Assembly (NCBI GenBank): GCA_031409655.1
Contig: JANNXQ010000303.1
Location: 1-13,620 of the forward strand
From: Chthoniobacteraceae bacterium
Lineage (GTDB): Bacteria; Verrucomicrobiota; Verrucomicrobiia; Chthoniobacterales; Chthoniobacteraceae
Direction: 5' to 3'
DNA length: 13,620 nt
The notes under the pieces are model-generated. The model saw only the letters and a list, made by a program, of their open reading frames with translations, ran no database searches and was not told where the DNA came from. Made by a program: the position numbers and the translations under genes. Position 1 is the stretch's first letter. Each line of letters opens with the position of its first letter. Below, piece after piece: positions 1-13,620 of the stretch.

Positions 1-39
1 CCGGCGTAAAATGTCGTTCGTGCCACGGCCGTTAACCGC

Positions 40-101
40 CATGGAGCAGGGGCGCCCACCCCCCAAGTCACGACCCGGGGCGAGGGCGCCCCTACTCCTT
101 G
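40..101. repeat. Family A REPIN-like palindromic doublet, copy 1 (probably intergenic, upstream of folP)
   Basis: 25-bp inverted arms 40-64 and 77-101 (4 mismatches), 12-nt spacer AAGTCACGACCC; matches the copies at 6826, 10076 and 12163. Confidence 0.9.
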
Positions 102-128
102 TGGGGAAGCAAACCGCCAGTGTGTGCG

Positions 129-950
129 ATGAAGCTGAAAGCTCGCGGAATCGAACTCACCTGGCCACGCCGCCCGCTGATCATGGGCATCGTGAATCTC
201 TCGGTGGATTCCTTTTCCGGCGATGGACTCGCGGACGTGGAGGCGGCTCTGGCCAAGGCCCGGCAGTTCATCGCGGATGGCGCGGACATCATCGACATCG
301 GCGCCGAGAGCGCGCGCACGAATCGCGCAGCCATCGCCGAAAGCGAAGAGGCGGCGCGGCTCGTGAGCTTCATCGAACGCTGGGACTTCCCTCTCCTTTC
401 CGTGAATACCTGGCGTCCCGCCGTCGCCCGCGCCGCGCTCAACGTCGGCGGCCACCTGCTCAATGACATCAGCGGACTGCCAACTGATGAAAACGCCCGC
501 ATCTGCGCGGAAACTGGCGCGGCCCTCCTCATCATGCACAGCATCGGCGAACCAAAGGTGCCGCATACCCACGTGGGCTACGCTGATGTGCTGGCGCGTC
601 TCGAAGAGTTTTTCGCCGCGAAGATCGCTCTGGCGGCAAGCGCGGGCGTCGCGCGCGACGCCCTGATTCTCGATCCGGGCATCGATTTCGCCAAGCAGCG
701 CGACGACAACCTGCGGATCTATCGGGAGCTCGATCGGCTCCAACGCTTCGAGCGGCCGATCCTCCTCCCGGTCTCGCGGAAGACAGTGATCGGCGACGTG
801 CTCGGCATCAAAGATCCCGCCGCACGCGATGCCGGGACCATCGCTTGCATCGTGCAGGGCATGCTCCGCGGCGCTTCCATTTTCCGCGTCCACAATGTCC
901 GCGCGGCGGCGCAGGCCGTGCGGATGATTGAGGCCGTCGAGACCGCCTGA
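129..950 (+). CDS. folP: Dihydropteroate synthase (273 aa from ATG 129)
   Basis: DHPS motifs IMGIVN..DSFS, GADIIDIGAES, LLNDISG, LIMH, LILDPG, SRK and IFRVHNV. ATG at 129 preferred over the upstream non-ATG start at 99, which overlaps the end of the palindromic repeat. Confidence 0.95.
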   Translation: MKLKARGIELTWPRRPLIMGIVNLSVDSFSGDGLADVEAALAKARQFIADGADIIDIGAESARTNRAAIAESEEAARLVSFIERWDFPLLSVNTWRPAVARAALNVGGHLLNDISGLPTDENARICAETGAALLIMHSIGEPKVPHTHVGYADVLARLEEFFAAKIALAASAGVARDALILDPGIDFAKQRDDNLRIYRELDRLQRFERPILLPVSRKTVIGDVLGIKDPAARDAGTIACIVQGMLRGASIFRVHNVRAAAQAVRMIEAVETA

Positions 951-958
951 CGGCGAAA

Positions 959-1735
959 TCACGCAGGCCGAACCGGAACCCCCTGCCCGGCGAGGAAGCG
1001 CTTCACATCGCCCACCGTGTATTCGCCAAAGTGGAAGATGCTCGCAGCGAGCACGGCATCGGCGCGACCTTCCGCCAGCACCTCCGCCAGGTGGAGCAGT
1101 GAACCCGCGCCACCGCTCGCCACCACGGGAACGCCGACGGCTTCGCTGATCCGGCGCGTGATCACGAGATCGTAGCCAGCCTTCGTGCCATCGGCGTCGA
1201 TGGAATTCAGCACGATCTCCCCGGCTCCGAGCGCCACCGCCCGTTCGGCCCACGCTGTCGCCTCCAAGCCAGCTGGCTTGCGCCCGCCTTGCACGAAGAC
1301 CTCCCAGCGATCCGGGGCCGTCTGCTTGCAATCAATACTCACTACGATGCACTGGCTGCCAAAACGCTCCGCGCCCGCGCTGATCAGTTCAGGTGTCGCG
1401 ATCGCGCTGGAGTTGATGCTGATCTTGTCCGCCCCAGCGCGGAGCATCGCGTGCATGTCGTCCGTCGTGCGGATGCCGCCGCCCACGGTCAGCGGCATGA
1501 AGCAGTGCGCGGCGGTGCGCTCGATCACTTCGATCATCGTCCCGCGGCCGTGGGCGCTCGCGGTGATATCGAAAAAGACCATCTCGTCCGCGCCTTGCTC
1601 GTTGTAGCGGATCGCGAGTTCCACGGGATCGCCGACGTTGCGCAGCCCCCCGTCCTCCGCCCGCCCGAATTGCACGCCGCGCGTTACTTTACCGTCGTGG
1701 ACGTCGAGACAGGGGATGACGCGTTTCGTGAGCAT
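959..1735 (-). CDS. hisF: Imidazole glycerol phosphate synthase cyclase subunit HisF (258 aa)
   Basis: [91 protein letters not shown]. Start placed at the ATG giving the canonical MLxKR(I/V)IPCLD N-terminus. Confidence 0.97.
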
Positions 1736-1794
1736 GGAGAAAAGGGGACGTTGGGAGATGGATGCGAGGACCGCGATGGCTGCGAACAAGAGGA

Positions 1795-1823
1795 TTGACG
1801 GACGGACGAACGTTTCCTAAACG
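1795..1823 (+). promoter_or_regulatory. Possible sigma70-type promoter for the DUF4912 gene
   Basis: TTGACG (1795-1800), 17-bp spacer, TAAACG (1818-1823) in the hisF/DUF4912 divergent gap. The -10 box lacks the conserved final T. Confidence 0.3.
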
Positions 1824-1876
1824 AGCACGTCTCGCCGCGCGACTCTCAAAGGAAAAACCGTTCATTCAAACTCACC

Positions 1877-3118
1877 ATGTCCAATAAGAAACCCGAAGCC
1901 GAAGCCTCCACGCAATTGCCAAGCAACGCTGCTGAAGCAAAAAAGCCCGGGCCTTTTCACCTGGCTCCAGAGCCAATGGATTCGGAGTCGGGCGCGGAGG
2001 AGGCGCACAAATTCGACATCGGCAGCCAGGCCCAGGATAACGCGCCCGCAGCTTCGTCCTCGACGCCAGCGCCCGCCTTTGAAGATCTGGGCGATCTCCC
2101 CACGAGCTATCAGGAGGACGTGCTCTACCTCGTGGCGCGCGATCCGCACTGGCTTTTCTGTTATTGGGATTTTGATTGGGCCCGGGTGCCGCGCGGGGAC
2201 TTCCGGGGCGGAGTGCCGCAATTTTTCCTGAAGATCACGAGCGGGGGCGTCGAAGCCGCCCTCGTGGAAATCCGCCCCGAGGCGCGCAACTGGTACGTGC
2301 CCGCCGGGAAACCGGCCACGAGCTACGCGGCGGAACTGGGCTGGTTTGACCAGGCCGGGACCTGGCACCGGGTGGTGCAATCCCGCCCCACCACCACCCC
2401 GGCAGACGAACTCGCGCCGGAACAACTCGCGACGGAGTTTGCCACGGTGCCGTCGCACATTGCCTTTGATCGGATGCTCGAGATGGTCCGCTGTCGCATG
2501 GAGGAAGGTGAGACGCTGCTCGAAGCCGTGTCCCGCATTTCCACGGAAGGCCGGATCGAATTTTCCGCCGGCAAAGCGCCCTCCTGGACTGACGAGCAGA
2601 AGCGCCTCCTTGCCGCGCTGCTCGGCGCGTCACTCGTCGATCGCGCAGGCCTCGGCTCCGCCGAGCTCGATCAACTTCTCCGCAAACATCTCCACGAGAA
2701 ACTCTCCAGCGAATCCGCCAGCGAACTCTCCCTGCGGCTCATCGAATCGCTTGCGCCCGGCACCTCCAGCCTCTTCAGCGGCATCGGCGCGAGTTGGAGT
2801 GCGCAGCCTTTCAGCGTTCATCGCGAGCGCGGATTCTACATGCATGTGAATGCGGAAATCATCTTCTACGGCGGCACGCACCCCGACGCGACGGTCTGGA
2901 TCGACGGCCAGGAGATCAAGCTCAGCCCCGACGGCAACTTCCGCTATCACTTCAAATTGCCCGATGGCGAGTACGCCATCCCGATCGTCGCGCAGTCACC
3001 CGACAAGGTGGAGAAGCGCACGGCCACGCTCAGTTTCACCCGTGGCACGGTGCGCGTGGGCAGTGTCGCGGAGACCGGCCAGCCGCCGTATCTCGATCCG
3101 CTCATCGGCCGGAAGTAG
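1877..3118 (+). CDS. DUF4912 domain-containing protein (413 aa), function unknown
   Basis: Recalled DUF4912 signature LPxSYxEDxLxLxARDPHWLFCYWD...RNWYV...YxAELG...SxxxxTP, with a C-terminal RGFYMHVNAEIIFYGGTHPDATVWIDG..I.L.PDG.FR..F.LPDG block and an acidic, disordered-looking N-terminus. Confidence 0.85.
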   Translation: MSNKKPEAEASTQLPSNAAEAKKPGPFHLAPEPMDSESGAEEAHKFDIGSQAQDNAPAASSSTPAPAFEDLGDLPTSYQEDVLYLVARDPHWLFCYWDFDWARVPRGDFRGGVPQFFLKITSGGVEAALVEIRPEARNWYVPAGKPATSYAAELGWFDQAGTWHRVVQSRPTTTPADELAPEQLATEFATVPSHIAFDRMLEMVRCRMEEGETLLEAVSRISTEGRIEFSAGKAPSWTDEQKRLLAALLGASLVDRAGLGSAELDQLLRKHLHEKLSSESASELSLRLIESLAPGTSSLFSGIGASWSAQPFSVHRERGFYMHVNAEIIFYGGTHPDATVWIDGQEIKLSPDGNFRYHFKLPDGEYAIPIVAQSPDKVEKRTATLSFTRGTVRVGSVAETGQPPYLDPLIGRK

Positions 3119-3128
3119 GCGCCTACTT
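3113..3128. repeat. Perfect 16-bp palindrome AAGTAGGCGCCTACTT spanning the stop codons of two convergent genes
   Basis: Read directly: both genes end AAG TAG and are separated by GCGC. Confidence 0.85.
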
Positions 3129-6100
3129 GGGGGTCGCCGCGGGTCCGGCCAGGAGTTGCTTCACCGCGTTTGCCACCTCCGCTGCACCGTCGGGGCTGAA
3201 GCCGGTCTTCACCCAGGCGACGTTGCCGTCTGGCCCGACGATCACGGTATGCGGGATGCCCTCGACTCCGTATTGGCGCGCCACCTTTTGGCCGGCATCC
3301 AGGGCGACATTAAATTTCCACCCGCGCGCCTCGAGGAAGCGTTTCACCTGCTCCGCGGGCTCGCTCTGGTTCACGCCGAGCAGGGTCACGCGCTCCGGCG
3401 GAAAAGCCGACATCGTCTCGATCAGTGCGGGCAATGACTTGATACACGGCCCGCACCACGTCGCCCAAAAGTCGAGGACGACCACCTTCCCCTTCCACTG
3501 CGCGAGGTCGAAGTCGCCGCCGCCGAGCAACGGCAGAATGAAAGTCTTCGCCACCTTGCCGAGCGCGGGGGAGCTTTCGCCGCCGGATTCCGGCAGCACC
3601 GGTTCCGGGGCATCGACGAGCCGCCAGTCGGCAAGCGACTTCATCGTCGGGGTGGCTTCGGGCGGAGTGGTGCGGATGGTGTGGATCTGGTCCAGCGGAA
3701 TCCGGCAGCGTCCGAACGCAGGATGACTTCCGATGACTGCGTCCGGCGCAAACTTTTCCACCGCCAGACCGAGCCGCGCGCCGCTCGTGAGCAGGAGCCA
3801 GTGGGTCGGCGAACCGAGCACGCCGCCAAACTCCGCCGCGAGCACGGCGGCGAGTTTCTCGTGATTGGCCGGTGAATTCGTCACCGTGAGATGGCCGGTC
3901 TTTGGCTGCCAAATCACTTTGGATTCATTCGAGAAGAGGACGCCTCGGCTGGCGAGGGTCGCCTGCGCCGAGGCCTCGAAAGGAAACGCGGACGGCCGCA
4001 GCCAATACATCTTCTCCCGCAATTCCGGCGCTGCCGACGCTGCCCCTTCGAGCACTTCGAGGATGATGGTGTCGTTTTCCACGCGGTGGCGCAGTCCGAA
4101 TTGACCGCAGATTTGATCGAGCGCTTCCGCCACCGTCTGTCCCCCAAACTGCATCGTGATTCGGACGGAACCAATCGGATCGGGCAGTCTGAACTTCAGG
4201 CCGCTGACCTCCCTCTGCAGCACGCCGGTCAGCGTGCCCAGACTCGCCCCGCTGTAGCGGATGTTTCGCGTGAGCCTCTGCTCGAGCAGTTTGAGGGCGG
4301 TATTCTGAGTCGCAGGCGGCGGCGCGTCCTTGTCGGGCTTCTTCAGCCAGATCGCCGCCTGCACGCGGTCACGCGGAACGCGGAGATTTTCCAGTCCGGA
4401 ACGGAAGCCAAAGTGGCTCGCCGTGGCCGCTTCGATCTCGCCGCGCAGGACGTCGCCATTCGTCGCGAGCAGGGCATGCCGTGGCGGATCGTCTTTGCGG
4501 AAACGCGGGATGGTCAGGGCCTGGAGCTTCGCATCCACACTCACCTCCGGCAGCCAGGCACGACCGGGATTGGAGGTTGCGGAAAAATCCTTCAGGGTCA
4601 CCGCCCGGACGGTATTACCCCAGGCGCTCGCCGGTTCGATGACGAGCCCCGCACCCGCACGTTTAGTAGGACTGATGGCAATTTTACGCGCCAGCACGTC
4701 GTTGAAAAACAGCTCCACCTGTTTGTCTGAAATGCTCAGGCGGACGGCGACGGACTGGCCTTGGTCGATGGTCATCTGTTGCTCGTGGTCGAGTAGGCCA
4801 TCCGTCGATTCGATGCCCGAATAGAGGCGGCCGCCCATATTTCCCATGACCAGATTGGTCGATTGGGCGCTCTCCGTCCCCGCGCAGAACAAGCGCAGTC
4901 GGATCACTGCGAAGCTCGCCGCATTGAATGAGAACTTGATCTCGCTGCTCTGCAATACCGAGGGATGCCCGATGGCCGTGCCCGCATCCATGCTCAGCGA
5001 GTCTTCCTTTTTGCGAACGCCCGGCTCGGTGCCTTTCACAATCCGCCAGCCGGCATCGCCAAAACCACGCAAGTTCCGCCCGCCGCCGCCTCCAAATTGA
5101 ATCGCGTCGAGGGTCTCGACCGGCAGCTTCGTCACCTCGACGACCCCTGAATCAATCTCCACGCCAGTGCGGTCGAGGCTGCGCAGGATCCCCGGGAGGA
5201 CATCGCCGCTCTGCATGTAAAAAAGCGCGAGAGCCCCGAGCGGTTCGGCGATCGGAAGAGGGGCGCGCCGGATTTCACTCTCCAGCCCCTTTGCCGGGAG
5301 TGCCGGTCTCACCCCGCCCACGGGCAGCCAGCGCAGCCTCGCATCACCGGTGCTCGCGAGCTTTCCGTGGAGCGTCAGCTTGGGCAGGACGAGCGTGTCC
5401 CATTCGGTCAGCGGCGGCTCGGGCGCGACGGCGTCGGACTTTTTCGTCTGCCGGAGGAGCTGACGCAGCCCCGCCATCTGCGAGCCGAGTAGCTCCGCCG
5501 AAAATCCAGTGCGCAGCGCGACCCGACCATCCTTGATCGCGACCATGCCCCCGTGCAGCAGCGTGCCGTCGCCAAAAACGAGGGTCGTATCGACTTCCAC
5601 CTTTTGAGGCAGGTCCGCGGAAAAGACCAATGCGTCCACTTCACTCAACGGATGGCTCACTCCAGAATCCTGGCCCGCGGTCTTGAGCGAGATCGCGCCG
5701 TCCGCGCCCGCGCCGATCTGGCCCTCGACTGTCCGGCCATCGGAAAACTCCACCCGCGGAAACTTTCCGGAAGTCTTCGCCGGAGCCTTGCCGTCCCATT
5801 TCCGCACCCGCAGAAATTCCAGAGAGAGGTCGCGCCCTTTGTTTTGCAGCACCACTTGTTGGTTCGCGTTGCTCGCATCCGGCGGCACTTCCCACTCGAC
5901 CATCGGCTCTCCCGTTACCGTGAAGACGGAGCATTTCTGCGCCTTCCGATCCCAGCAGATGCGCAAGGCCACTTCGCGATCGCTATCGACCAGCGTGCGG
6001 ATGCTCTTGAAGCTGCGGCCCGCCGTGACCACCAGTTCATCGTCCCATGTTTCGACCCGCAGGCGATGCTTCCCGCCAGCCCCGAGCGAAAGTTGGAAGT

Positions 6101-6932
6101 CCGGCCGTTTGGTGGACCGCACGCGAAACTCCACATCCACCAACTCCGGCAGCACCACGTCGAGCGCGGCGCCGCGATTCCAGTAGGGCAACTCCAGCGC
6201 CCCGGCGGCCCCGGTGCGGAGGAGGGGAACTTGCGACGCCAGCGCGGTGACGTTTTTCGTGGTGTCGGCCACGATCCGCCAGCGCGATTCCCCCGCCGGG
6301 CCCGCTGCGATCAGGCTTCCACCCGTGAGCCGGCGCGCACTGAGCACCTCGGAACGCTTCAGCGCGACCTCGCCGTGCCGGGCACTGCGGACCGTGATCG
6401 TCGCCTCCGACACCGCCACGACGTTGCCGAAAAGATGACTCCCATCGCGCAGCGCAAAGCTAAAGGGCTCGCTGCTCGTCGCCGGCTCCAGCACCCGATC
6501 GATCCGGCGCAGCGCCGACCACTGCAAGACCAGCGGCTCATCAAAGAACGGAGATCGCCAGGTGAGTTCGGTCGCGCTCGCCTCGACGGGCTCACCAGCG
6601 AGGGATTCGCCGTTGTTCCAGCGGAGCGTGGCACCATCCGACGCGGGCGTGGCTTTGATCAATGCGGCCGTGGCCGGACTGAGATTGATGACCCGGATCC
6701 GCCGGCCGTCGGCTGCTTTGCGGAGTTGGAGGAGGAGTTCGTCTTCCGCACCGGTCCCGGTCGCGGAAAGTGCGACGAGGAGCAGCCAGACGAACAGTGC
6801 GAAACGTGCGGCGGCGGGCCGGACCCAAGGAGCAGGGGCGCCCCCGCCCCGTGGAGATACTCGGGGCGAAGGCGCCCCTGCTCCTTGACCTCGTCGCGCA
6901 CGGTCAGTTTGCAAATACGCCCTGTCCTTCAT
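3123..6932 (-). CDS. Large exported multidomain protein (1269 aa) with C-terminal TlpA/ResA-like thioredoxin domain
   Basis: C-terminal KGKVVVLDFWATWCGPC...YGVEGIPHTVIVGPDG (WCGPC at 3444-3458). N-terminal hydrophobic signal-like stretch FALFVWLLLVALSA. Start ATG 6932 overlaps the upstream TGA (ATGA, 6929-6932); the ORF-track extension to 7076 overlaps the upstream gene. Confidence 0.85.
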   Translation of the reverse strand: MKDRAYLQTDRARRGQGAGAPSPRVSPRGGGAPAPWVRPAAARFALFVWLLLVALSATGTGAEDELLLQLRKAADGRRIRVINLSPATAALIKATPASDGATLRWNNGESLAGEPVEASATELTWRSPFFDEPLVLQWSALRRIDRVLEPATSSEPFSFALRDGSHLFGNVVAVSEATITVRSARHGEVALKRSEVLSARRLTGGSLIAAGPAGESRWRIVADTTKNVTALASQVPLLRTGAAGALELPYWNRGAALDVVLPELVDVEFRVRSTKRPDFQLSLGAGGKHRLRVETWDDELVVTAGRSFKSIRTLVDSDREVALRICWDRKAQKCSVFTVTGEPMVEWEVPPDASNANQQVVLQNKGRDLSLEFLRVRKWDGKAPAKTSGKFPRVEFSDGRTVEGQIGAGADGAISLKTAGQDSGVSHPLSEVDALVFSADLPQKVEVDTTLVFGDGTLLHGGMVAIKDGRVALRTGFSAELLGSQMAGLRQLLRQTKKSDAVAPEPPLTEWDTLVLPKLTLHGKLASTGDARLRWLPVGGVRPALPAKGLESEIRRAPLPIAEPLGALALFYMQSGDVLPGILRSLDRTGVEIDSGVVEVTKLPVETLDAIQFGGGGGRNLRGFGDAGWRIVKGTEPGVRKKEDSLSMDAGTAIGHPSVLQSSEIKFSFNAASFAVIRLRLFCAGTESAQSTNLVMGNMGGRLYSGIESTDGLLDHEQQMTIDQGQSVAVRLSISDKQVELFFNDVLARKIAISPTKRAGAGLVIEPASAWGNTVRAVTLKDFSATSNPGRAWLPEVSVDAKLQALTIPRFRKDDPPRHALLATNGDVLRGEIEAATASHFGFRSGLENLRVPRDRVQAAIWLKKPDKDAPPPATQNTALKLLEQRLTRNIRYSGASLGTLTGVLQREVSGLKFRLPDPIGSVRITMQFGGQTVAEALDQICGQFGLRHRVENDTIILEVLEGAASAAPELREKMYWLRPSAFPFEASAQATLASRGVLFSNESKVIWQPKTGHLTVTNSPANHEKLAAVLAAEFGGVLGSPTHWLLLTSGARLGLAVEKFAPDAVIGSHPAFGRCRIPLDQIHTIRTTPPEATPTMKSLADWRLVDAPEPVLPESGGESSPALGKVAKTFILPLLGGGDFDLAQWKGKVVVLDFWATWCGPCIKSLPALIETMSAFPPERVTLLGVNQSEPAEQVKRFLEARGWKFNVALDAGQKVARQYGVEGIPHTVIVGPDGNVAWVKTGFSPDGAAEVANAVKQLLAGPAATPK
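6826..6887. repeat. Family A REPIN-like palindromic doublet, copy 2 (in frame in N-terminus of the TlpA-domain gene)
   Basis: Arms 6826-6850 and 6863-6887 (2 mismatches), spacer GTGGAGATACTC; translates as QGAGAPSPRVSPRGGGAPAPW. Confidence 0.95.
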
Positions 6933-8068
6933 CGTTCGTAGATCGGCAGAAACCGATAGTTCAGCGCCAGCGCGAGGAGCGACATGCCCGTGCCATACGC
7001 GCCCTGGCCGATCGCGCCATCCTCGCCTTGCAGTTCGTGCAGTTCCCGCACCTTGGCTCCGTTCCACTTTTGCCACGCCGCGTAGTCGCCTTGAAAGAGT
7101 GCCTGCGCCATGTAGTAGCGATTGTATTCCGGGTAACTCGTTTCGCGCTGTTCGAGTCCTTCCACGATCCGCTTGAGGCTGGCCTTGTATTGCTCCGTTT
7201 CCTTGGTCTTGGAAATCGCCCCGACCAGCGCCGAGATCGCCGAGAGATTCATCGAGCCGCCCATGCCCCCCAGCCCGCCGGAGTACGCCACCGAACCATC
7301 CTTACCCGTGCTCCGGCGCATGTATTCCATGGCGGCGTCCACCATCTCGTCCGCCACCTCCAGACCAGCATTCCGCGCCGCGAGCAGACCCATCAGCACC
7401 GCTCCCGTGACGGACGTATCGGCATCCGTCGCATCGGGCGAGTAGCGCCAGCCGCCCCACTTGTTCTTCTTCTGCGCAGTGGCCGCACAGCGGATCGCCA
7501 GCTCCAGCGTCGCGCCGATGCTCCGAACCGCCTTCTCGCCCTCCCAGAGCAGCACCTCATCGACCGAGCCATACGCTTCGCACAGCGCGAGCAGCGCAAA
7601 GCCGTGGTGATACATGCTGTCCGGCAGATAGCCGGTCTTCTCATCCTGCCGGCGGATGATCGAGCGGATCGCCCGGCGGATCGTCGCCGCATGGCGCCCG
7701 TAGTTCGGATCGTCGCCGCTTGCGAGGAAGGCCATGAGACAAATGCCATCGACGCCCGCGCCTTCGTTACTCCCCTTCCACGAGCCTTCCTCGGATTGCG
7801 CCCCGGCCAGCCAGGTGAGCCCACGTTCATAGACGGTCTCCACCTCCGGCGGAATCTGTCCGCCAAAGCGGAGGGTGGAATCCTGCGCCAGTGCAGTCGC
7901 GGCAAAGAGAAGGAGGAGCGCGCAGATCATCCCTGGGAGCGCCTCCGTCCCCGTGCGGCCTCGGGCCCATCGCGCAGCGCAAATCACTCCGGGGCACGAT
8001 CGAAGTTTGCGCTGCGCGCATCGGAAGATTGCCGCACGGGGACGGCGGCGCTCCCACGTCGCGCTCAT
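6929..8068 (-). CDS. Exported prenyltransferase/squalene-oxidase (QW) repeat protein (379 aa from 8068; alternative start 7930 gives 333 aa)
   Basis: QW-type motifs WLAGAQSEEGSW, IIRRQDEKTG, GGWRY..DADTSVT, LQGEDG; also SMYHHGFALLALCEAYG. Signal-like ICALLLLFAATALAQ. ATG 8068 overlaps the upstream TGA and is preceded by GAAGGAGAAAAAGGA (SD-like). Confidence 0.85.
   Translation of the reverse strand: MSATWERRRPRAAIFRCAQRKLRSCPGVICAARWARGRTGTEALPGMICALLLLFAATALAQDSTLRFGGQIPPEVETVYERGLTWLAGAQSEEGSWKGSNEGAGVDGICLMAFLASGDDPNYGRHAATIRRAIRSIIRRQDEKTGYLPDSMYHHGFALLALCEAYGSVDEVLLWEGEKAVRSIGATLELAIRCAATAQKKNKWGGWRYSPDATDADTSVTGAVLMGLLAARNAGLEVADEMVDAAMEYMRRSTGKDGSVAYSGGLGGMGGSMNLSAISALVGAISKTKETEQYKASLKRIVEGLEQRETSYPEYNRYYMAQALFQGDYAAWQKWNGAKVRELHELQGEDGAIGQGAYGTGMSLLALALNYRFLPIYER
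7934..8056. repeat. Family B 123-bp nested palindrome (REPIN-like), in N-terminus of the QW-repeat gene
   Basis: Outer arms 7934-7959 TGGGAGCGCCTCCGTCCCCGTGCGGC and 8031-8056 (1 mismatch in 26). Perfect 13-bp inner arms 7971-7983 CGCGCAGCGCAAA and 8006-8018. Single copy in the window. Confidence 0.85.
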
Positions 8069-10149
8069 TCCTTTTTCTCCTTCACCCGACTGGTGTGCAG
8101 GCGCTGCACGTTCTCCCAGTAGTTGGTGGTGTTGCCGAATTCCACGCCGCCAGTCCAAAGCTCCCATTGCTCTTTCGTTAAAATCCCCTTCAGCTCTTTC
8201 TCCGGCACGGCCATGACGGGGAGAAACATACTGTAGCTCTGGAGATACCAGATGTTGCTGTAAGAAGAGGAGAACATCGACCCGATGTCCGGCCCATAGT
8301 CCTTCACCATCTTCGCGATCTGCGGCTCGAGTTTGCTCCCTTGCTCTGTCGTCAGCGCAATGCGGCGGTCCAACTCCGCCATGATGAGATTCGCGATGAC
8401 CTCGTCGCGCCAGGCACCGCGCGCATCGATCTCCTTCTTCCAGGCCGCCCGCTGCGCCTCGGTGAGTTCGGCGTTCACGGTCGCCTCCCACAGCATTCCA
8501 AGATCGGCGTCACCACTGCTCCGCCGCCCGGAGCTGTAGCGGTCAAGACTGATCAGCCGTTGCTGCACATTCTCCGGCGTCACGTCGCGCAACTGAGAGC
8601 GAATGGTTTGATCCGTATTCGCCTTCCAGACCGCCAGTTCGCCTTCCGCCACGCCGCGCGCGGCGATCGCAAGCTGACGAGTCGCTTGCGCCGAAAGGCC
8701 CGCCACGCGCGCGGCGTCTTCCGCTTTGACGAGATGGACCGCGAGCAGCCGCTTCCTTTCAGTGGCCGCCTTTTCGTGGAAATGATCCGAGATCGCGTTC
8801 TCCACATCCTCGGGCTCGCCGGGTTGCGGCGGTGGAGCCGTCTTCGTCGCTGGCGTGAGCGCGCGGGCGACCACCAGTCCGACCCGTGGCGCGGCGCTTT
8901 TTGCGTTGCACACTTCCTGCCAGCGCTGGCGCTGCGTCTCGTCGAGGATCGCTTTCAATTCTTCCTCCTTCACCGTGCGCCCGCAGACGAAGAGCTTCCC
9001 TAAATTGATCCGGTAATAAGGCTGTCCGATTTCGCCCGGGAGCACCGAGGGATCGGCTCGGACTTCGCGCTCGACCAACGGCCGCAAGCGCTCGCGCTGG
9101 TCCTCGGTGAAGGCGACCTGTTCGTCGAGTTGCGCGATCAAAACGCCCGCCAGCGCCTTGCTCTGCCGCTCCCGATATTCCTCCTGCATTCCCCGCAGGC
9201 GGCTCGCTTCTTTCGCCGACAAGAACTTCGCCACACCCTCCTCCCAGGCCGCTTTCTGGACCGCGATGTCGGACTCTTCCATGGGAACATGCAGCCCGGA
9301 ACGCACCACTTCCTCCCGCTGCTCCTGCTCCATGGCGAGGACGTTTCGCTCGGCGCGTTTTCGGACGTTTCCGAGGGCTGTCTCCACCGCGGCTTTGGCA
9401 ATGGCGTCGAGTGTCGCAGCACGGTCCTTCGAGAGCGCCAGCGCCGTCTTCGTCGATTCCACTTTCGACAGCAGCCCCTGCTCTTGCCCCACGCGCGTCT
9501 GCTCGATGGCTTTTCGGAGCACGTCCGCAGTCTCGCGCAGGACGGCCTCCTTTTTTTCCCCGCTCGCCTTTTCCCAGACGTTCGCTTGTTCGGGAGAAAG
9601 GACGCCTTTGAGTCCTTCAGCCCATTTCGGGTCTTCAAACGGGCGAAAATACCCTCCGAAAAAATCCGCAAACTGCGGCTGATCCATTTGCGATAAAATC
9701 TGATCCACGACTTCCGGTTGATCCACGTACGGACTTAGGGCATCCCTCATCCAACTCGAAAACTTCGGCGCCCAGACCTGCACGGAGGACTCGATCAGCG
9801 GATCGACGAATAGCCGCAGCCGCGCTTGTGCATCGGCTCCGAGGTCGGTGGTTTTCGCCACCAGGTCGATCTCCCGCTGCATTCGCTCCGCCCATTGTTT
9901 GCGTTTCGTCTCGTTGGCCTTCCCCAGAAACTCCGTGAGCTTCGCCTCCACCTCTGGCCCCAGATTGGGTTGCCGTTTGGCGTCAGCTTTGGTCTCCGCA
10001 CCGGTGAGCACGCTCAGCCCAATCACGAGCGATAGTACCGCGCTCAGCAAGAAGAAGTGGTCGCCGCTGTGCATCCAAGGAGCCGGGGCGCCCTCGCCCC
10101 GTGGATCAAACTCGCGGCGAGGGCGCCCCTTCTCCTTGAGCCCGTTCAT
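8065..10149 (-). CDS. Exported alpha-helical repeat protein with recurring L(T/S)xxQ motifs (694 aa), hypothetical
   Basis: Open frame with hydrophobic FFLLSAVLSLVIGLSVL near the N-terminus and repeated ..LSPEQ..W / LDETQ..RW / LTEAQ..AW / LTKEQ..LW units. ATG 10149 overlaps the upstream TGA (10146-10149); alternative ATG at 10074. Confidence 0.8.
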   Translation of the reverse strand: MNGLKEKGRPRREFDPRGEGAPAPWMHSGDHFFLLSAVLSLVIGLSVLTGAETKADAKRQPNLGPEVEAKLTEFLGKANETKRKQWAERMQREIDLVAKTTDLGADAQARLRLFVDPLIESSVQVWAPKFSSWMRDALSPYVDQPEVVDQILSQMDQPQFADFFGGYFRPFEDPKWAEGLKGVLSPEQANVWEKASGEKKEAVLRETADVLRKAIEQTRVGQEQGLLSKVESTKTALALSKDRAATLDAIAKAAVETALGNVRKRAERNVLAMEQEQREEVVRSGLHVPMEESDIAVQKAAWEEGVAKFLSAKEASRLRGMQEEYRERQSKALAGVLIAQLDEQVAFTEDQRERLRPLVEREVRADPSVLPGEIGQPYYRINLGKLFVCGRTVKEEELKAILDETQRQRWQEVCNAKSAAPRVGLVVARALTPATKTAPPPQPGEPEDVENAISDHFHEKAATERKRLLAVHLVKAEDAARVAGLSAQATRQLAIAARGVAEGELAVWKANTDQTIRSQLRDVTPENVQQRLISLDRYSSGRRSSGDADLGMLWEATVNAELTEAQRAAWKKEIDARGAWRDEVIANLIMAELDRRIALTTEQGSKLEPQIAKMVKDYGPDIGSMFSSSYSNIWYLQSYSMFLPVMAVPEKELKGILTKEQWELWTGGVEFGNTTNYWENVQRLHTSRVKEKKE
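10076..10138. repeat. Family A REPIN-like palindromic doublet, copy 3 (in frame in N-terminus of the LTxxQ-repeat gene)
   Basis: Arms 10076-10100 and 10114-10138 (3 mismatches), 13-nt spacer GTGGATCAAACTC; translates as KEKGRPRREFDPRGEGAPAPW. Confidence 0.95.
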
Positions 10150-13100
10150 TTCCGAGCCGCCTGGTTTTCGAGCAGGCTGAAGTACGCGTCGAGGCCGGGC
10201 TTGAATTCCGCCGGGAATTCTTTGCCCGCGCGCCCCGTCGCCTGACCGATGGCCCGCGCGGCGACGCTGCTCTCCGCGTCGGAGCCGGGGCCGAGATCGG
10301 CGAGCGCGGCGGAGGACGCCGTGGCCGCGCGGCCACCACCGCCGGGATTCGATCCGCCACCGCCGCCGCCTTTCGGGCTCATGCGTTTGGCTTGGAGCAG
10401 GAGTTCGATCGCTTCGGTCTCGGCGGCGATCGCGGTCGGGCCGGTTTCCGGCGTGACGAGGATACCTTGCGCTTCGTCCATCACCGTCACGACGGCTGAA
10501 AGCAGCGCCAGTTCCTTGGGAAATTTCGCCGCACCCTCCGGCAGCGCGCGGATGTCGCTGATCGCACTCGCGGTGTGTTGCGCGATGCTCGTCTGCTTTT
10601 CGCCAAGCACTTTTGCATCGGTGGAAAACTTCGCCTCTTCCAAGGCGGCCCGTGCATTTTCCATCTCGCGGGTTTCGTCGCGCAGCTTCATCTCGTCGCG
10701 CAGGGCTTGCATGACCTTGAGCACGATCTCCGGCGGCAGGCTGTCGCCGCTGCAACTCGAGCAGGATTTGCAATTGCTCGCCGCGACCATTTCCTCCGAC
10801 CAGCGATCCAGCGTGTCCGCCCAATACTCGGAACCCACGAGTCCCTGCCCGGTGAGATTGATCGCCACCTTCTCGCCGCCGCGGGCCAGCGCGCGGACGA
10901 CTTCGGTCTTCTTCATCTGATCGAGGATGTTCTTAAAATGGCTGTCCTGCTTGCGCTGGAAGTAGGCCTCGAGGTCGCTCTGGATCACGCGCACGACATC
11001 GCTCTGCGATTTCGCGTGTTTGGCGATCGGCTCCACGGCTTTCACGGGCTCGCGCTCAATGCCGAAGGCGTCGAGCGTCTTCTGATTGATGTCCGAGGCG
11101 ATGGCCATCTGCTGCCGCGACGCTGCTTTGAAGCGCTTCACGAAGGTGCTCGCTTCGAGACTCGCGAGGATTTCGCCGAGCTGATCGGAGACCTTGGCAA
11201 ACTCGGCGAGCAAATCCTTCTGCTCGGTAATCGCGGAATCGAGTTTCTCCTGCGCGGGCGACTCCGGTGGTTTCGGGGCTTCGTCGTCTTTCTTCGCGGG
11301 CGCGGCGGCGAGAGTGGTCTGGGGCAGGCCGAGTTTGCTGGCACCCGGCGGTTTTGGCGGGGCGTTTGGATCGGTCGGTTTGGGTTCGGGCGGTTTGCTG
11401 AAGCCGGCTTCGCGATCCGCGATGCTCGGCGCGGCGGGTTTTGGCAGAGCGTTGGGATCGATAGCCTGCGGAGTGGCTGGGGCCGAGGGAAGTGGCGCGC
11501 CTTGGGCGACGCTTGGCGCACTCTTCGCATCCTTCGCTTCGGAAGGTTGCCCAGGCTTGGCCTCCGACTGCTGCGGAGGCGCGGCGCCGGGCTTTCCGCT
11601 GGAAGGTTTCCCCGCAGTGGCGCTCGCGGTTTGTTTGAGCAGATCGGAGACACTCGGCATCCGGTTCGCGGCGATGTCCTTCAGCGACTTCAGCATCGTC
11701 GCCCACGATTCGAGCCGGTTCGCATCGAACTCCGGATTCTTCGTCGCCTGCTCGACGAGGCTGCGGCCGGAATTCGTCAGGCTATCGACGCGCGCGGCAT
11801 TCGCGTTTTCGGCGGAAGCCTGTTGCGAGACTTTGCGGCGATTCTCCGGGCGATCGAGTTCGGCGGCGTCGAGCGCGCGCAGTTCCTTGTTCGTCTGGTG
11901 GAGCTGTTGCTCGCGCTCGTAGCTTTCGCGGGCGACTTCGAGCCACTTGCCGAATTGCTCCGTGAGCCAGAGCGCGTGGTCGGTCTTGTCGAGCACATGG
12001 AGGATGAAGCTCGCCGACTTCGCGCGCTCCCGGCCCGGCAGATAGTCGTCGGTCCAGGCCCGCACTTCGAGGGTCTGCGGCGCCACCCCTTCGCGCGTCG
12101 CGCAGAAAGTCGCGCGTGCCCCCAGTTCCCGCTTCTCGGGTTCGCCCGCGGCAGCGATTTTCCAAGGAGCCGGGGCGCCCTCGCCCCGAGTTGCGTCACG
12201 GGGCGAGGGCGCCCCGCCTCCTTGAGCGCTCCATTCGAGCCCCACGCGCTGCACGCCGAAGTCATCGCTCGCGGCGAGGTCGAAGATGACGACTTCGGAG
12301 TCGAGCACGACTTGCTCGAGCGATTCGCGGCGCGCGATGATCCGCGGCGCCTCGTCGTCCAGCGCCCGCACTTTGAGCACGAGCGGATCGCGTGGGGTGA
12401 GGCCGTCCTGATCCTTCCAGGTGAACTTCCGTTCGCGGTCCGCGCTGACCGGCTCGTAACTCGTCACGATCTTCTCGCCATCGACTTTCTGCGCGAGGCC
12501 ATCGAGTTCTGCCGCCGCGAGCGCGCGGCTCGCCTTTGCTTCAAACGCGGCCTCCGCGCCCTTGAGCACGCTCACCGCACCGCCGCGCACGTCGAGGTGC
12601 TGCTCGGATTTGTATTGGAGGTAGGCCGGCAGGCGCAGCCGCACCGCGAGTTCCGTGAGCTCGGGACGCGGACGCGGCTGGAGCTGGATGGACTTCCGCA
12701 CATCGCCGAGCGCGAGCGCGAGCGCGGCGTCCTGCTTCTGCGGCGGAAAGGCGAGGGGATACGTGCCGGCGTCGAGTTTCGCGCGCACCGTCGGCTGCTG
12801 GCCGATCCGCGCGGTGCTTTGCTCCGGTGAGCGCCGGGTATCCGCCGCGAGCCGCACGGGCAGCTCGAAGGGCTCCGCATATGGCACCACCAGCCGGGCG
12901 GGCAGCGGCTCGACTTTGGCAAAGGTGTAACGCTCCACCGCGCGCCACGGCGTGCTCCAGCGGACGAAGGCATTGCGCGCCGCTTCATTCACCAAGGCAA
13001 ACGCCAGCACCGCCACGGCGCACGTTCCCGCCGCGGCCCAGCCCCACTGCCGATGCCGCGCTTCCGGCACGGCATGGGTGAAATCCTTGTCCTTCACCGC

Positions 13101-13502
13101 GTCGGCCGCCTGCGCCATCGCCGCCTCCACCAGCCGCTCGCTGCGCCCGGCCGCCGCGTGATCCATGCGCGAAAGCTCCACGATACCGAGGAGCTGATCG
13201 CCGAGCCGCGGGAAGGTCCGGCGCAAGAGCCGCGCTGCATCTTCCAGCCGCCGCTGCCGCCAGACCCACGCGTGCCACTTCAATGGCAGGCCGAGTCCGA
13301 GGACCGCCGCCCCGGCGACGAGCAGGCTCAGGCGCAGCCAGCCCGGTGTTTCAAAGAAACGATCGAGCGCGAAGACGAGCAGGTAAGAGAGCGCGATGCC
13401 GAAGAGGGCCGCGAGCAAGCCCTCCGCAAGTTTCACGACCCAGACGCGGCGGCGGAAATCGGCCAGCTTCGTTTCGAGGATCGGTGGGAGGTTCGTGTTC
13501 AT
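10146..13502 (-). CDS. Large membrane-anchored protein (1118 aa): ~3 N-terminal TM segments, beta-rich region, coiled-coil C-terminal half with Pro/Ala/Lys linker (DUF4175-like architecture)
   Basis: Hydrophobic stretches LLAALFGIALSYLLVFALD, LSLLVAGAAVLGLGL, AAAGTCAVAVLAFALV. Motifs P.LGDQLLGIVEL, PAYLQY, DDFGV and a C-terminal FPAEFKPGLDAYF. An in-frame stop lies shortly upstream of ATG 13502. Family assignment is from recall only. Confidence 0.8.
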   Translation of the reverse strand: MNTNLPPILETKLADFRRRVWVVKLAEGLLAALFGIALSYLLVFALDRFFETPGWLRLSLLVAGAAVLGLGLPLKWHAWVWRQRRLEDAARLLRRTFPRLGDQLLGIVELSRMDHAAAGRSERLVEAAMAQAADAVKDKDFTHAVPEARHRQWGWAAAGTCAVAVLAFALVNEAARNAFVRWSTPWRAVERYTFAKVEPLPARLVVPYAEPFELPVRLAADTRRSPEQSTARIGQQPTVRAKLDAGTYPLAFPPQKQDAALALALGDVRKSIQLQPRPRPELTELAVRLRLPAYLQYKSEQHLDVRGGAVSVLKGAEAAFEAKASRALAAAELDGLAQKVDGEKIVTSYEPVSADRERKFTWKDQDGLTPRDPLVLKVRALDDEAPRIIARRESLEQVVLDSEVVIFDLAASDDFGVQRVGLEWSAQGGGAPSPRDATRGEGAPAPWKIAAAGEPEKRELGARATFCATREGVAPQTLEVRAWTDDYLPGRERAKSASFILHVLDKTDHALWLTEQFGKWLEVARESYEREQQLHQTNKELRALDAAELDRPENRRKVSQQASAENANAARVDSLTNSGRSLVEQATKNPEFDANRLESWATMLKSLKDIAANRMPSVSDLLKQTASATAGKPSSGKPGAAPPQQSEAKPGQPSEAKDAKSAPSVAQGAPLPSAPATPQAIDPNALPKPAAPSIADREAGFSKPPEPKPTDPNAPPKPPGASKLGLPQTTLAAAPAKKDDEAPKPPESPAQEKLDSAITEQKDLLAEFAKVSDQLGEILASLEASTFVKRFKAASRQQMAIASDINQKTLDAFGIEREPVKAVEPIAKHAKSQSDVVRVIQSDLEAYFQRKQDSHFKNILDQMKKTEVVRALARGGEKVAINLTGQGLVGSEYWADTLDRWSEEMVAASNCKSCSSCSGDSLPPEIVLKVMQALRDEMKLRDETREMENARAALEEAKFSTDAKVLGEKQTSIAQHTASAISDIRALPEGAAKFPKELALLSAVVTVMDEAQGILVTPETGPTAIAAETEAIELLLQAKRMSPKGGGGGGSNPGGGGRAATASSAALADLGPGSDAESSVAARAIGQATGRAGKEFPAEFKPGLDAYFSLLENQAARK
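12163..12224. repeat. Family A REPIN-like palindromic doublet, copy 4 (in frame inside the 1118-aa gene)
   Basis: Arms 12163-12187 and 12200-12224 (1 mismatch), spacer GAGTTGCGTCAC; translates as QGGGAPSPRDATRGEGAPAPW. Confidence 0.95.
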
Positions 13503-13620
13503 GGCGCGGGATGGGTGGTGACATCAGTTCACAGGCGCAGACGTTAAAAACAAAGTGCGCGCTCCCCAGACTCCGGGCGAACGCCTCAATGGCTTGCGGG
13601 GCGGCATCATGATCGTGCGG

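Follow-up and report, generated by a model that had tools for sequence, protein, structure and literature searches.

Repeats that are translated, or that lie between coupled genes, have been described in several bacterial groups. In the verrucomicrobium Opitutus terrae, repetitive extragenic palindromic (REP) sequences of 20-30 aa occur in frame inside genes, some of them N-terminally (PMC3733652), and in Yersinia a miniature inverted-repeat transposable element (MITE) forms part of the predicted signal peptide of YPO1552 (PMC2229807). Mycobacterial interspersed repetitive units (MIRUs; Supply et al. 1997, via PMC12548453) are inserted at a start codon and carry an open reading frame (ORF) of their own, coupled at -4 nt, with little effect on expression. 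In integrons, an attC hairpin prevents translation of what lies downstream if no short ORF runs across it (PMC8876359). Ribosomes are also described as unwinding hairpins during coupling (PMC12548453). Here, we analyzed a stretch of 13,620 nucleotides from a Chthoniobacteraceae bacterium (GenBank assembly GCA_031409655.1, contig JANNXQ010000303.1, positions 1 to 13,620; hereafter, the window), in which three consecutive genes carry a palindromic element in frame between a coupled start codon and the hydrophobic core of a predicted signal peptide. We consider it likely that selfish REP elements, or REP doublets forming hairpins (REPINs), survive at coupled junctions only if they are translated, either as an extension of the signal-peptide n-region or within a short bridging ORF, with purifying selection as the filter.

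Palindromes behind three coupled start codons

The minus strand of the window holds four genes, the first of which (gene 1, 13502-10146, 1118 aa) heads a conserved four-gene cassette. It is followed by gene 2 (10149-8065, 694 aa, predicted to be secreted), gene 3 (8068-6929, 379 aa), and gene 4 (6932-3123, 1269 aa). The original prediction had placed the starts of genes 2, 3, and 4 at 10149, 8068, and 6932, each in an ATGA overlap and each followed by a palindrome (family A, B, and A, respectively) ahead of the hydrophobic h-region. This was confirmed on the minus strand: every ATG overlaps the upstream stop (10146-10149, 8065-8068, and 6929-6932), and the palindromes start 11, 12, and 45 nt past the first base of the ATG. 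The element in gene 2 is a family A REP dimer of 63 nt (10076-10138; -51.8 kcal/mol, all folding energies being computed in the mRNA sense) encoding residues 4-25, the one in gene 3 a nested family B palindrome of 123 nt (7934-8056; -95.6 kcal/mol) encoding residues 5-45, and the one in gene 4 a family A REP dimer of 62 nt (6826-6887; -59.8 kcal/mol) encoding residues 16-36. All three junctions are thus in-frame fusions and none is a bridging ORF.

As judged by eye and by a hydrophobicity proxy, genes 2-4 fit the layout of a Sec signal peptide, with a basic n-region, a hydrophobic h-region, and small residues before the mature start. The h-regions, also on the minus strand, lie at 10006-10056 (residues 32-48), 7889-7930 (residues 47-60), and 6768-6803 (residues 44-55), and the best 12-residue hydrophobic segments begin at residues 32, 46, and 44 with a mean hydropathy of 2.7-3.0, while the n-regions hold 6-11 Lys/Arg. 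Including the element, the predicted signal peptides measure ~51 aa in gene 2 (cleavage site assigned by eye), ~61 aa in gene 3, and ~62 aa in gene 4; in gene 3, the mature N-terminus (Gln-Asp preceded by a small residue) is kept in 11 relatives.

Error-free contig pieces of runs X1-X3, which belong to one study and of which X1 may be the source sample, enter the elements from both sides, and as far as contigs can show the palindromes are not an assembly artifact. In the contigs of four DNA runs, no joint cleanly deleting an element and no empty allele was found.

Reading through elements at coupled junctions across the genome

The test set comprised co-directional junctions with a repeat starting at most 75 nt from the upstream stop, 208 in total, 63 of them with family A or B. 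Where an A/B element coincides with an ATG-type stop/start overlap, 14 of 15 junctions are read through, nine of them in frame (N-terminal extension of the next gene) and five as a relay (a bridging ORF with a stop codon that overlaps the start of the next gene). As a control, a virtual start was placed at 36 A/B junctions without an overlapping start; only 3/36 behaved likewise at the same offset (p=7e-9) and 11/36 in the least favorable frame. Taking all repeat families together, 35/45 ATG-type junctions are read through, compared with 17/117 or 31/117 in the controls. Bridging ORFs span 27-88 codons and end on the next start codon; those crossing A/B elements start 4-72 nt before the element and stop -1 to 137 nt after it, in unrelated flanks. 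The relay at C10 is ambiguous, as an in-frame ATG also precedes its element.

The two outcomes are associated with different proteins. At a hydrophobicity threshold of 1.8, all 11 in-frame A/B cases (nine ATG and two GTG starts) have a hydrophobic N-terminus, versus 293/603 element-free coupled genes (p=0.0004), and at a threshold of 2.0 the counts are 10/11 and 266/603. Among the A/B relays, seven in all, the next protein is hydrophobic in four. Counted per Mb, A/B copies are densest within the first 75 nt of hydrophobic coupled genes (482), against 203 in non-coding DNA and 3.4 in gene interiors (16 copies, two of them doubtful), and none lies in 310 non-hydrophobic coupled N-termini (23 kb). 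The occupation of N-termini is thus beyond chance, as the original prediction had argued. Its proposal that n-regions are a safe harbor for such insertions is supported by this hydrophobic bias and, as described below, by the ancestral coupled ATG and the lack of an alternative canonical start in gene 4.

This genome initiates translation without Shine-Dalgarno (SD) sites: SD-like words at -16 to -5 precede 51/1140 starts versus 83 in a control interval, and the leaders of its starts are C-rich and G-poor. Because SD-like words are scarce and leaders have this composition, initiation probably relies on open structure or on coupling. Low SD use has been reported in Bacteroidetes and Chlamydia, with Verrucomicrobia not named in the available part of that source (PMC6728339). 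One candidate ribosome-binding site, a GGAGG within the family B copy 11 nt before the ATG at 7930, was rejected as a rare variant (2/135 arms) in a genome without SD use.

If the elements were effectively intergenic, the upstream in-frame ATG would be a relic, with translation beginning at the ATG right after the hairpin or at some non-canonical codon. The original prediction had named these downstream starts as the alternative. In-frame ATG codons do lie one base beyond the element of gene 2 (10074) and three bases beyond that of gene 3 (7930), a comparable internal Met is found in G012 and G003 (gene 2) and in G001 (gene 3), and Di Nocera et al. (2013; PMC3733652) hold many N-terminal REPs to be extragenic and their start calls wrong. 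Nevertheless, gene 4 has no in-frame ATG, GTG, or TTG from the element to residue 70, h-region included, and 8/11 in-frame A/B cases have no ATG between element and h-region. A relic would not hold frame 0 or the relay frame, whereas the frames of 32 ATGA junctions with an element, counted with a junction filter that missed genes 2 and 3 of the window, number 16, 1, and 15. A start 1-3 nt behind a stem of -52 or -96 kcal/mol would also be unfavorable without an SD signal, and a start at 7930 yields no basic n-region. We regard relic starts as unlikely in general: gene 4 has no other canonical start ahead of the h-region, and in genes 2 and 3 both upstream and internal starts may be used.

History of the junctions in related genomes

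Gene 3 was matched in 22/41 genomes, and the 11 best operons were compared, giving 7, 11, and 10 relatives for the junctions of genes 2, 3, and 4, respectively. The stop/start overlap is present in 6/7 relatives for gene 2, in 11/11 for gene 3 (ten ATGA, one TGATG), and in 10/10 for gene 4, mostly leading into an ordinary short signal peptide, and families A and B are absent from these three junctions in all relatives examined. Since the overlaps are kept and the A/B elements are missing there, the comparison indicates that the coupled ATG is ancestral and that the elements are later, independent, and lineage-specific arrivals. Unrelated palindromes occupy the n-region of gene 3 in frame in G003 (z -7.8) and in G019 (19-nt arms, ~100 extra residues), and gene 4 of G003 carries a weaker one (z -1.9).

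In the second option of the original prediction, the hairpins had been co-opted at every junction and would adjust translational coupling, the stability of mRNA segments, or the ratios of subunits; the long n-regions could share such a role. Three consecutive occupied junctions, compared with 11/304 hydrophobic coupled starts genome-wide, would suit such a role, as would the three unrelated palindromes found in the gene 3 n-region in three genomes and two relays in G002 that precede proteins with relays in G000 too. Most relatives, however, have the same cassette hairpin-free (z between -2.0 and +1.5 at 26/28 junctions), even the closest one (G001, with a gene 1 of 94% identity) has none of the three junction elements, and family, length, and offset vary freely. 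Co-option is thus very improbable, and this part of the original prediction was not borne out. Since relatives lack them, the three copies in the window look like recent passengers and not like a conserved regulator.

Some further observations on these relatives can be noted. In G023, gene 3 is frameshifted just past the point at which its signal peptide would be cleaved, and is either broken or misassembled, and the gene 2 ortholog of G010 has ~140 extra residues after the signal peptide, which we take to resemble a PDZ-type domain. Two junctions of G002 (L157 and L179) and two of G000 (C170 and C127) are seemingly bridged by mini-ORFs in both genomes with different repeat types, the orthology resting on N-terminal similarity.

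Outside the window, 8 of the 15 read-through A/B junctions were queried in five relatives. Direct coupling without an element was found at C280 in 4/5 relatives, at C131, C296, and C105 in 1/1 syntenic relative each, at KsgA in 1/3 syntenic relatives, and at C47 in 3/4, one having a different repeat in the n-region; the relay at C194 has a single ortholog, which is not syntenic. At C280, the alignment reveals a clean 146-nt insert exactly at the overlap, whose first bases recreate the stop and behind which the original start is retained. Such a case would be expected if insertion were targeted, that is, if a transposase or repair preferred stop/start overlaps and recreated them, as proposed for MIRUs, so that mutational bias more than selection would produce the pattern. 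ATGA is also found ahead of 37/208 element junctions compared with 41/1222 stops of convergent genes. On the other hand, the 4-72 nt between ATG and element differ every time and lie outside the element consensus, several unrelated repeat families show the same pattern, and targeting alone leaves unexplained why in-frame cases avoid cytoplasmic proteins. Targeted insertion seems to us quite unlikely, and selection on translated elements remains the preferred explanation.

The pattern was also sought in kin genomes. In 722 kb of G002, a region picked partly around REP hits and with palindromes found de novo, all three ATGA junctions with a palindrome are relays, compared with 3/16 controls, and 1/4 GTGA junctions is in frame. 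Of three ATG-type junctions within 77 kb of G001, two fit, one as an in-frame extension of a signal peptide and the other as a relay, and the third is unexplained. The numbers are small. The G003 loci contained no countable junction.

Element families and transposase

The 6.85-Mb genome (94.9% complete, 306 contigs) contains 110 copies of family A and 102 of family B, as identified with nhmmer, and 467 further copies of other palindromic repeats, many of them built from 6-7-base units. Family A is an inverted dimer with 26-nt arms and a variable loop of ~10 nt, mostly 62-63 nt long. One of 13 Y1_Tnp matches (C187:31223-31867) has A dimers on both sides and is a REP-associated tyrosine transposase (RAYT), scoring 83.1 bits against REP_Tyr_transpos (NCBIfam cut-off, 80). 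Its gene begins 3 nt past the upstream A element and takes its stop codon from the downstream one. The 5' tag GTAG is carried by all four arms beside the RAYT and by 44 of the 167 scored arms genome-wide, while GCAG is found on 67 (53 arms were unscored). Family A is a REP dimer with a cognate RAYT, and was most likely spread by the C187 enzyme that it flanks. For family B, which is REP-like, none of the 13 Y1_Tnp matches in this 306-contig, 94.9% complete assembly has a copy within 1.5 kb. Family A was matched in 4/41 genomes searched and family B in 4/27, all four belonging to the genus.

The A-like variant dimers that flank a second RAYT (C213:32822-33496; 59% identity to the C187 enzyme) include one that lies behind an ATGA overlap. 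RAYT-like domains with their own flanking repeats also occur inside long open frames, at C102:35377-35604 (1374 aa) and at C138:15902-16189 (934 aa), the latter frame resembling alanyl-tRNA synthetase, and relatives of the C187 RAYT in G001 and G002 are likewise within frames of 1100-1392 aa. Several hundred palindromes are inverted arrays of 6-7-base units of at least six types; many of them lie in operon junctions, and they sometimes provide the hydrophobic stretch of the signal peptide itself (C71, C247, and C257).

Family A copies are mostly outside genes, with 14 gene-internal and nine coupled N-terminal ones. Two copies in the window were missing from the original prediction, which also did not foresee the bridging mini-ORF. 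One (12163-12224) lies in frame inside gene 1, near codon 425, where ~22 residues replace a loop of ~15 residues; it is shared with G001, also in frame, while G010, G012, G013, and G023 have the shorter loop. This case suggests that a 62-nt element can regain the reading frame when bases next to it are lost. The 14 in-frame internal copies (this one and 13 others) lie in varied proteins, with several element frames being read. The other copy (40-101) is found at the contig start, upstream of the dihydropteroate synthase gene. Five A/B copies per 14-kb window are by themselves unexceptional, as 102/1000 random placements reach this number. An arm variant present in 13 copies is common to those at 10076 and 12163, which is suggestive only. 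Local hopping or clustering of copies was considered and rejected (27 close pairs versus 22.6 expected, p=0.17).

Other features of the window

The C-terminus of gene 4 contains a ResA/TlpA-like thioredoxin domain (AhpC-TSA, Redoxin). Genes 1-3 gave no match above cut-off in Pfam and NCBIfam, gene 3 having a weak squalene-cyclase-type match below it (E 0.0014). The neighbors are unrelated to the cassette and encode a dihydropteroate synthase (99-950, plus strand), a HisF-type cyclase (959-1789, minus strand), and a DUF4912 protein (1877-3118, plus strand). An Rfam scan of the window returned no match at the gathering score.

Discussion

The following mechanism would account for these observations. 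The secreted-protein operons of this genome appear to depend on stop/start overlaps, and a hairpin of 50-95 kcal/mol placed in a coupled junction would block re-initiation, severing the next gene from ribosomes unless an elongating ribosome unwinds it. Selection would then remove REP hairpins from coupled junctions unless they are translated. In the first outcome, an element in frame behind the original coupled ATG would become an extra n-region, mostly basic and rich in Pro and Gly, which only proteins beginning with a signal peptide or a membrane anchor would tolerate, with the extension being cut off or harmless; the long signal peptides would presumably be exported and cleaved normally. 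In the second outcome, an element out of frame would be crossed by a short bridging ORF that begins at the old overlap and has a stop codon overlapping the start of the downstream gene. Both the extensions and the mini-ORFs would thus be translated, and the filter acting on them would be purifying selection. The elements themselves are probably passengers of neutral effect that selection has filtered, rather than a regulatory device.

Several points weigh against this explanation. The gene calls (5363 genes) come from a self-trained hexamer model applied with masking of repeats, a hydrophobicity proxy served to score signal peptides, and the control junctions were not matched for promoter content. 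Neither outcome fits 10/45 ATG-type junctions, nor most GTGA junctions (33/46, with 13/46 fitting), although a poorer fit of the latter is expected, because GTGA ends 171/1222 convergent genes by chance. Outside families A and B, the hydrophobic excess is not significant (7/11 versus 293/603, p=0.37), partly because the repeat itself provides the hydrophobic stretch in three cases. Relays also arise easily, given that ATGA is the sequence at 54% of starts and that an element frame is open in ~71% of cases. Among the orthologs, the C32 ABC ATPase relay is not directly coupled in 4/4 syntenic relatives (gaps of 23-121 nt), and KsgA in G003 has a palindrome with a 15-codon ORF that falls short of the next start. 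Finally, the ATG codons right after the elements of genes 2 and 3, with a Met at a similar place in relatives, make internal starts possible there.

The pattern provides a sequence-level rule for where REP-type repeats persist inside operons and, for this lineage, answers the doubt that N-terminal REPs are mere wrong start calls. Automatic annotation is predicted to shorten these signal peptides and to overlook the bridging ORFs. The junctions also offer natural test cases for whether a ribosome must cross a hairpin to keep coupling, which is the principle of engineered bicistronic designs, and for how long and how foreign a Sec n-region can be (43-45 residues here, ~100 in G019). A broader version, which we put forward only tentatively and consider rather doubtful, is that in SD-less bacteria palindromic parasites, whatever their family, generally have a niche at coupled junctions and that insertion itself rebuilds the overlap. 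If it were true, repeats would keep supplying extended signal peptides and, in each genome, dozens of translated bridging peptides of 30-90 aa, and some of these would by now determine subunit ratios in secreted complexes or the route by which such complexes are exported.

Comparison with known systems

Family A resembles the GTAG-type REP dimers and REPINs of Di Nocera et al. (2013; PMC3733652), which are also inverted dimers of a short palindrome with a repeat-flanked RAYT and termini supplying stop codons. Many N-terminal copies are deemed probably extragenic there, and the available part of that paper makes no tie to overlaps, signal peptides, or bridging ORFs; by eye, none of the O. terrae peptides listed in it resembles the A or B translations. 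Like MIRUs, seven A/B junctions outside the window have a mini-ORF that overlaps the preceding stop at one end and the next start at the other. Unlike them, A and B are strong palindromes without a fixed ORF or a built-in overlap, their start and stop coming from variable flanks, several unrelated families are involved, and there is a second outcome, the signal-peptide fusion. The A/B relays work in a MIRU-like manner, but they are not MIRUs. With the short ORFs of integron attC sites and attI1 ORF-11/17/18 (PMC8876359), they would share the principle that a palindromic hairpin blocks the ribosome and that a crossing ORF restores translation by termination-reinitiation, but attC sites are integrase recombination sites of cassettes, whereas the hairpins here are chromosomal REP-type parasites in native operons. 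The Rickettsia palindromic elements and MITE-derived ORF fusions (PMC2229807) are likewise palindromes translated in frame with a near-neutral effect, while a preference for n-regions behind coupled starts is not described in the available part of that source. In open-access full texts, to which the search was confined, we found no paper tying REP-type repeats to n-regions behind coupled starts, nor one stating the two-outcome rule. In-frame REPs have been reported before in a verrucomicrobium (PMC3733652), as have the mini-ORFs of MIRUs (PMC12548453) and parts of signal peptides that derive from MITEs (PMC2229807), and the pattern described here, which is real and statistically supported, is a variant of this known behavior.

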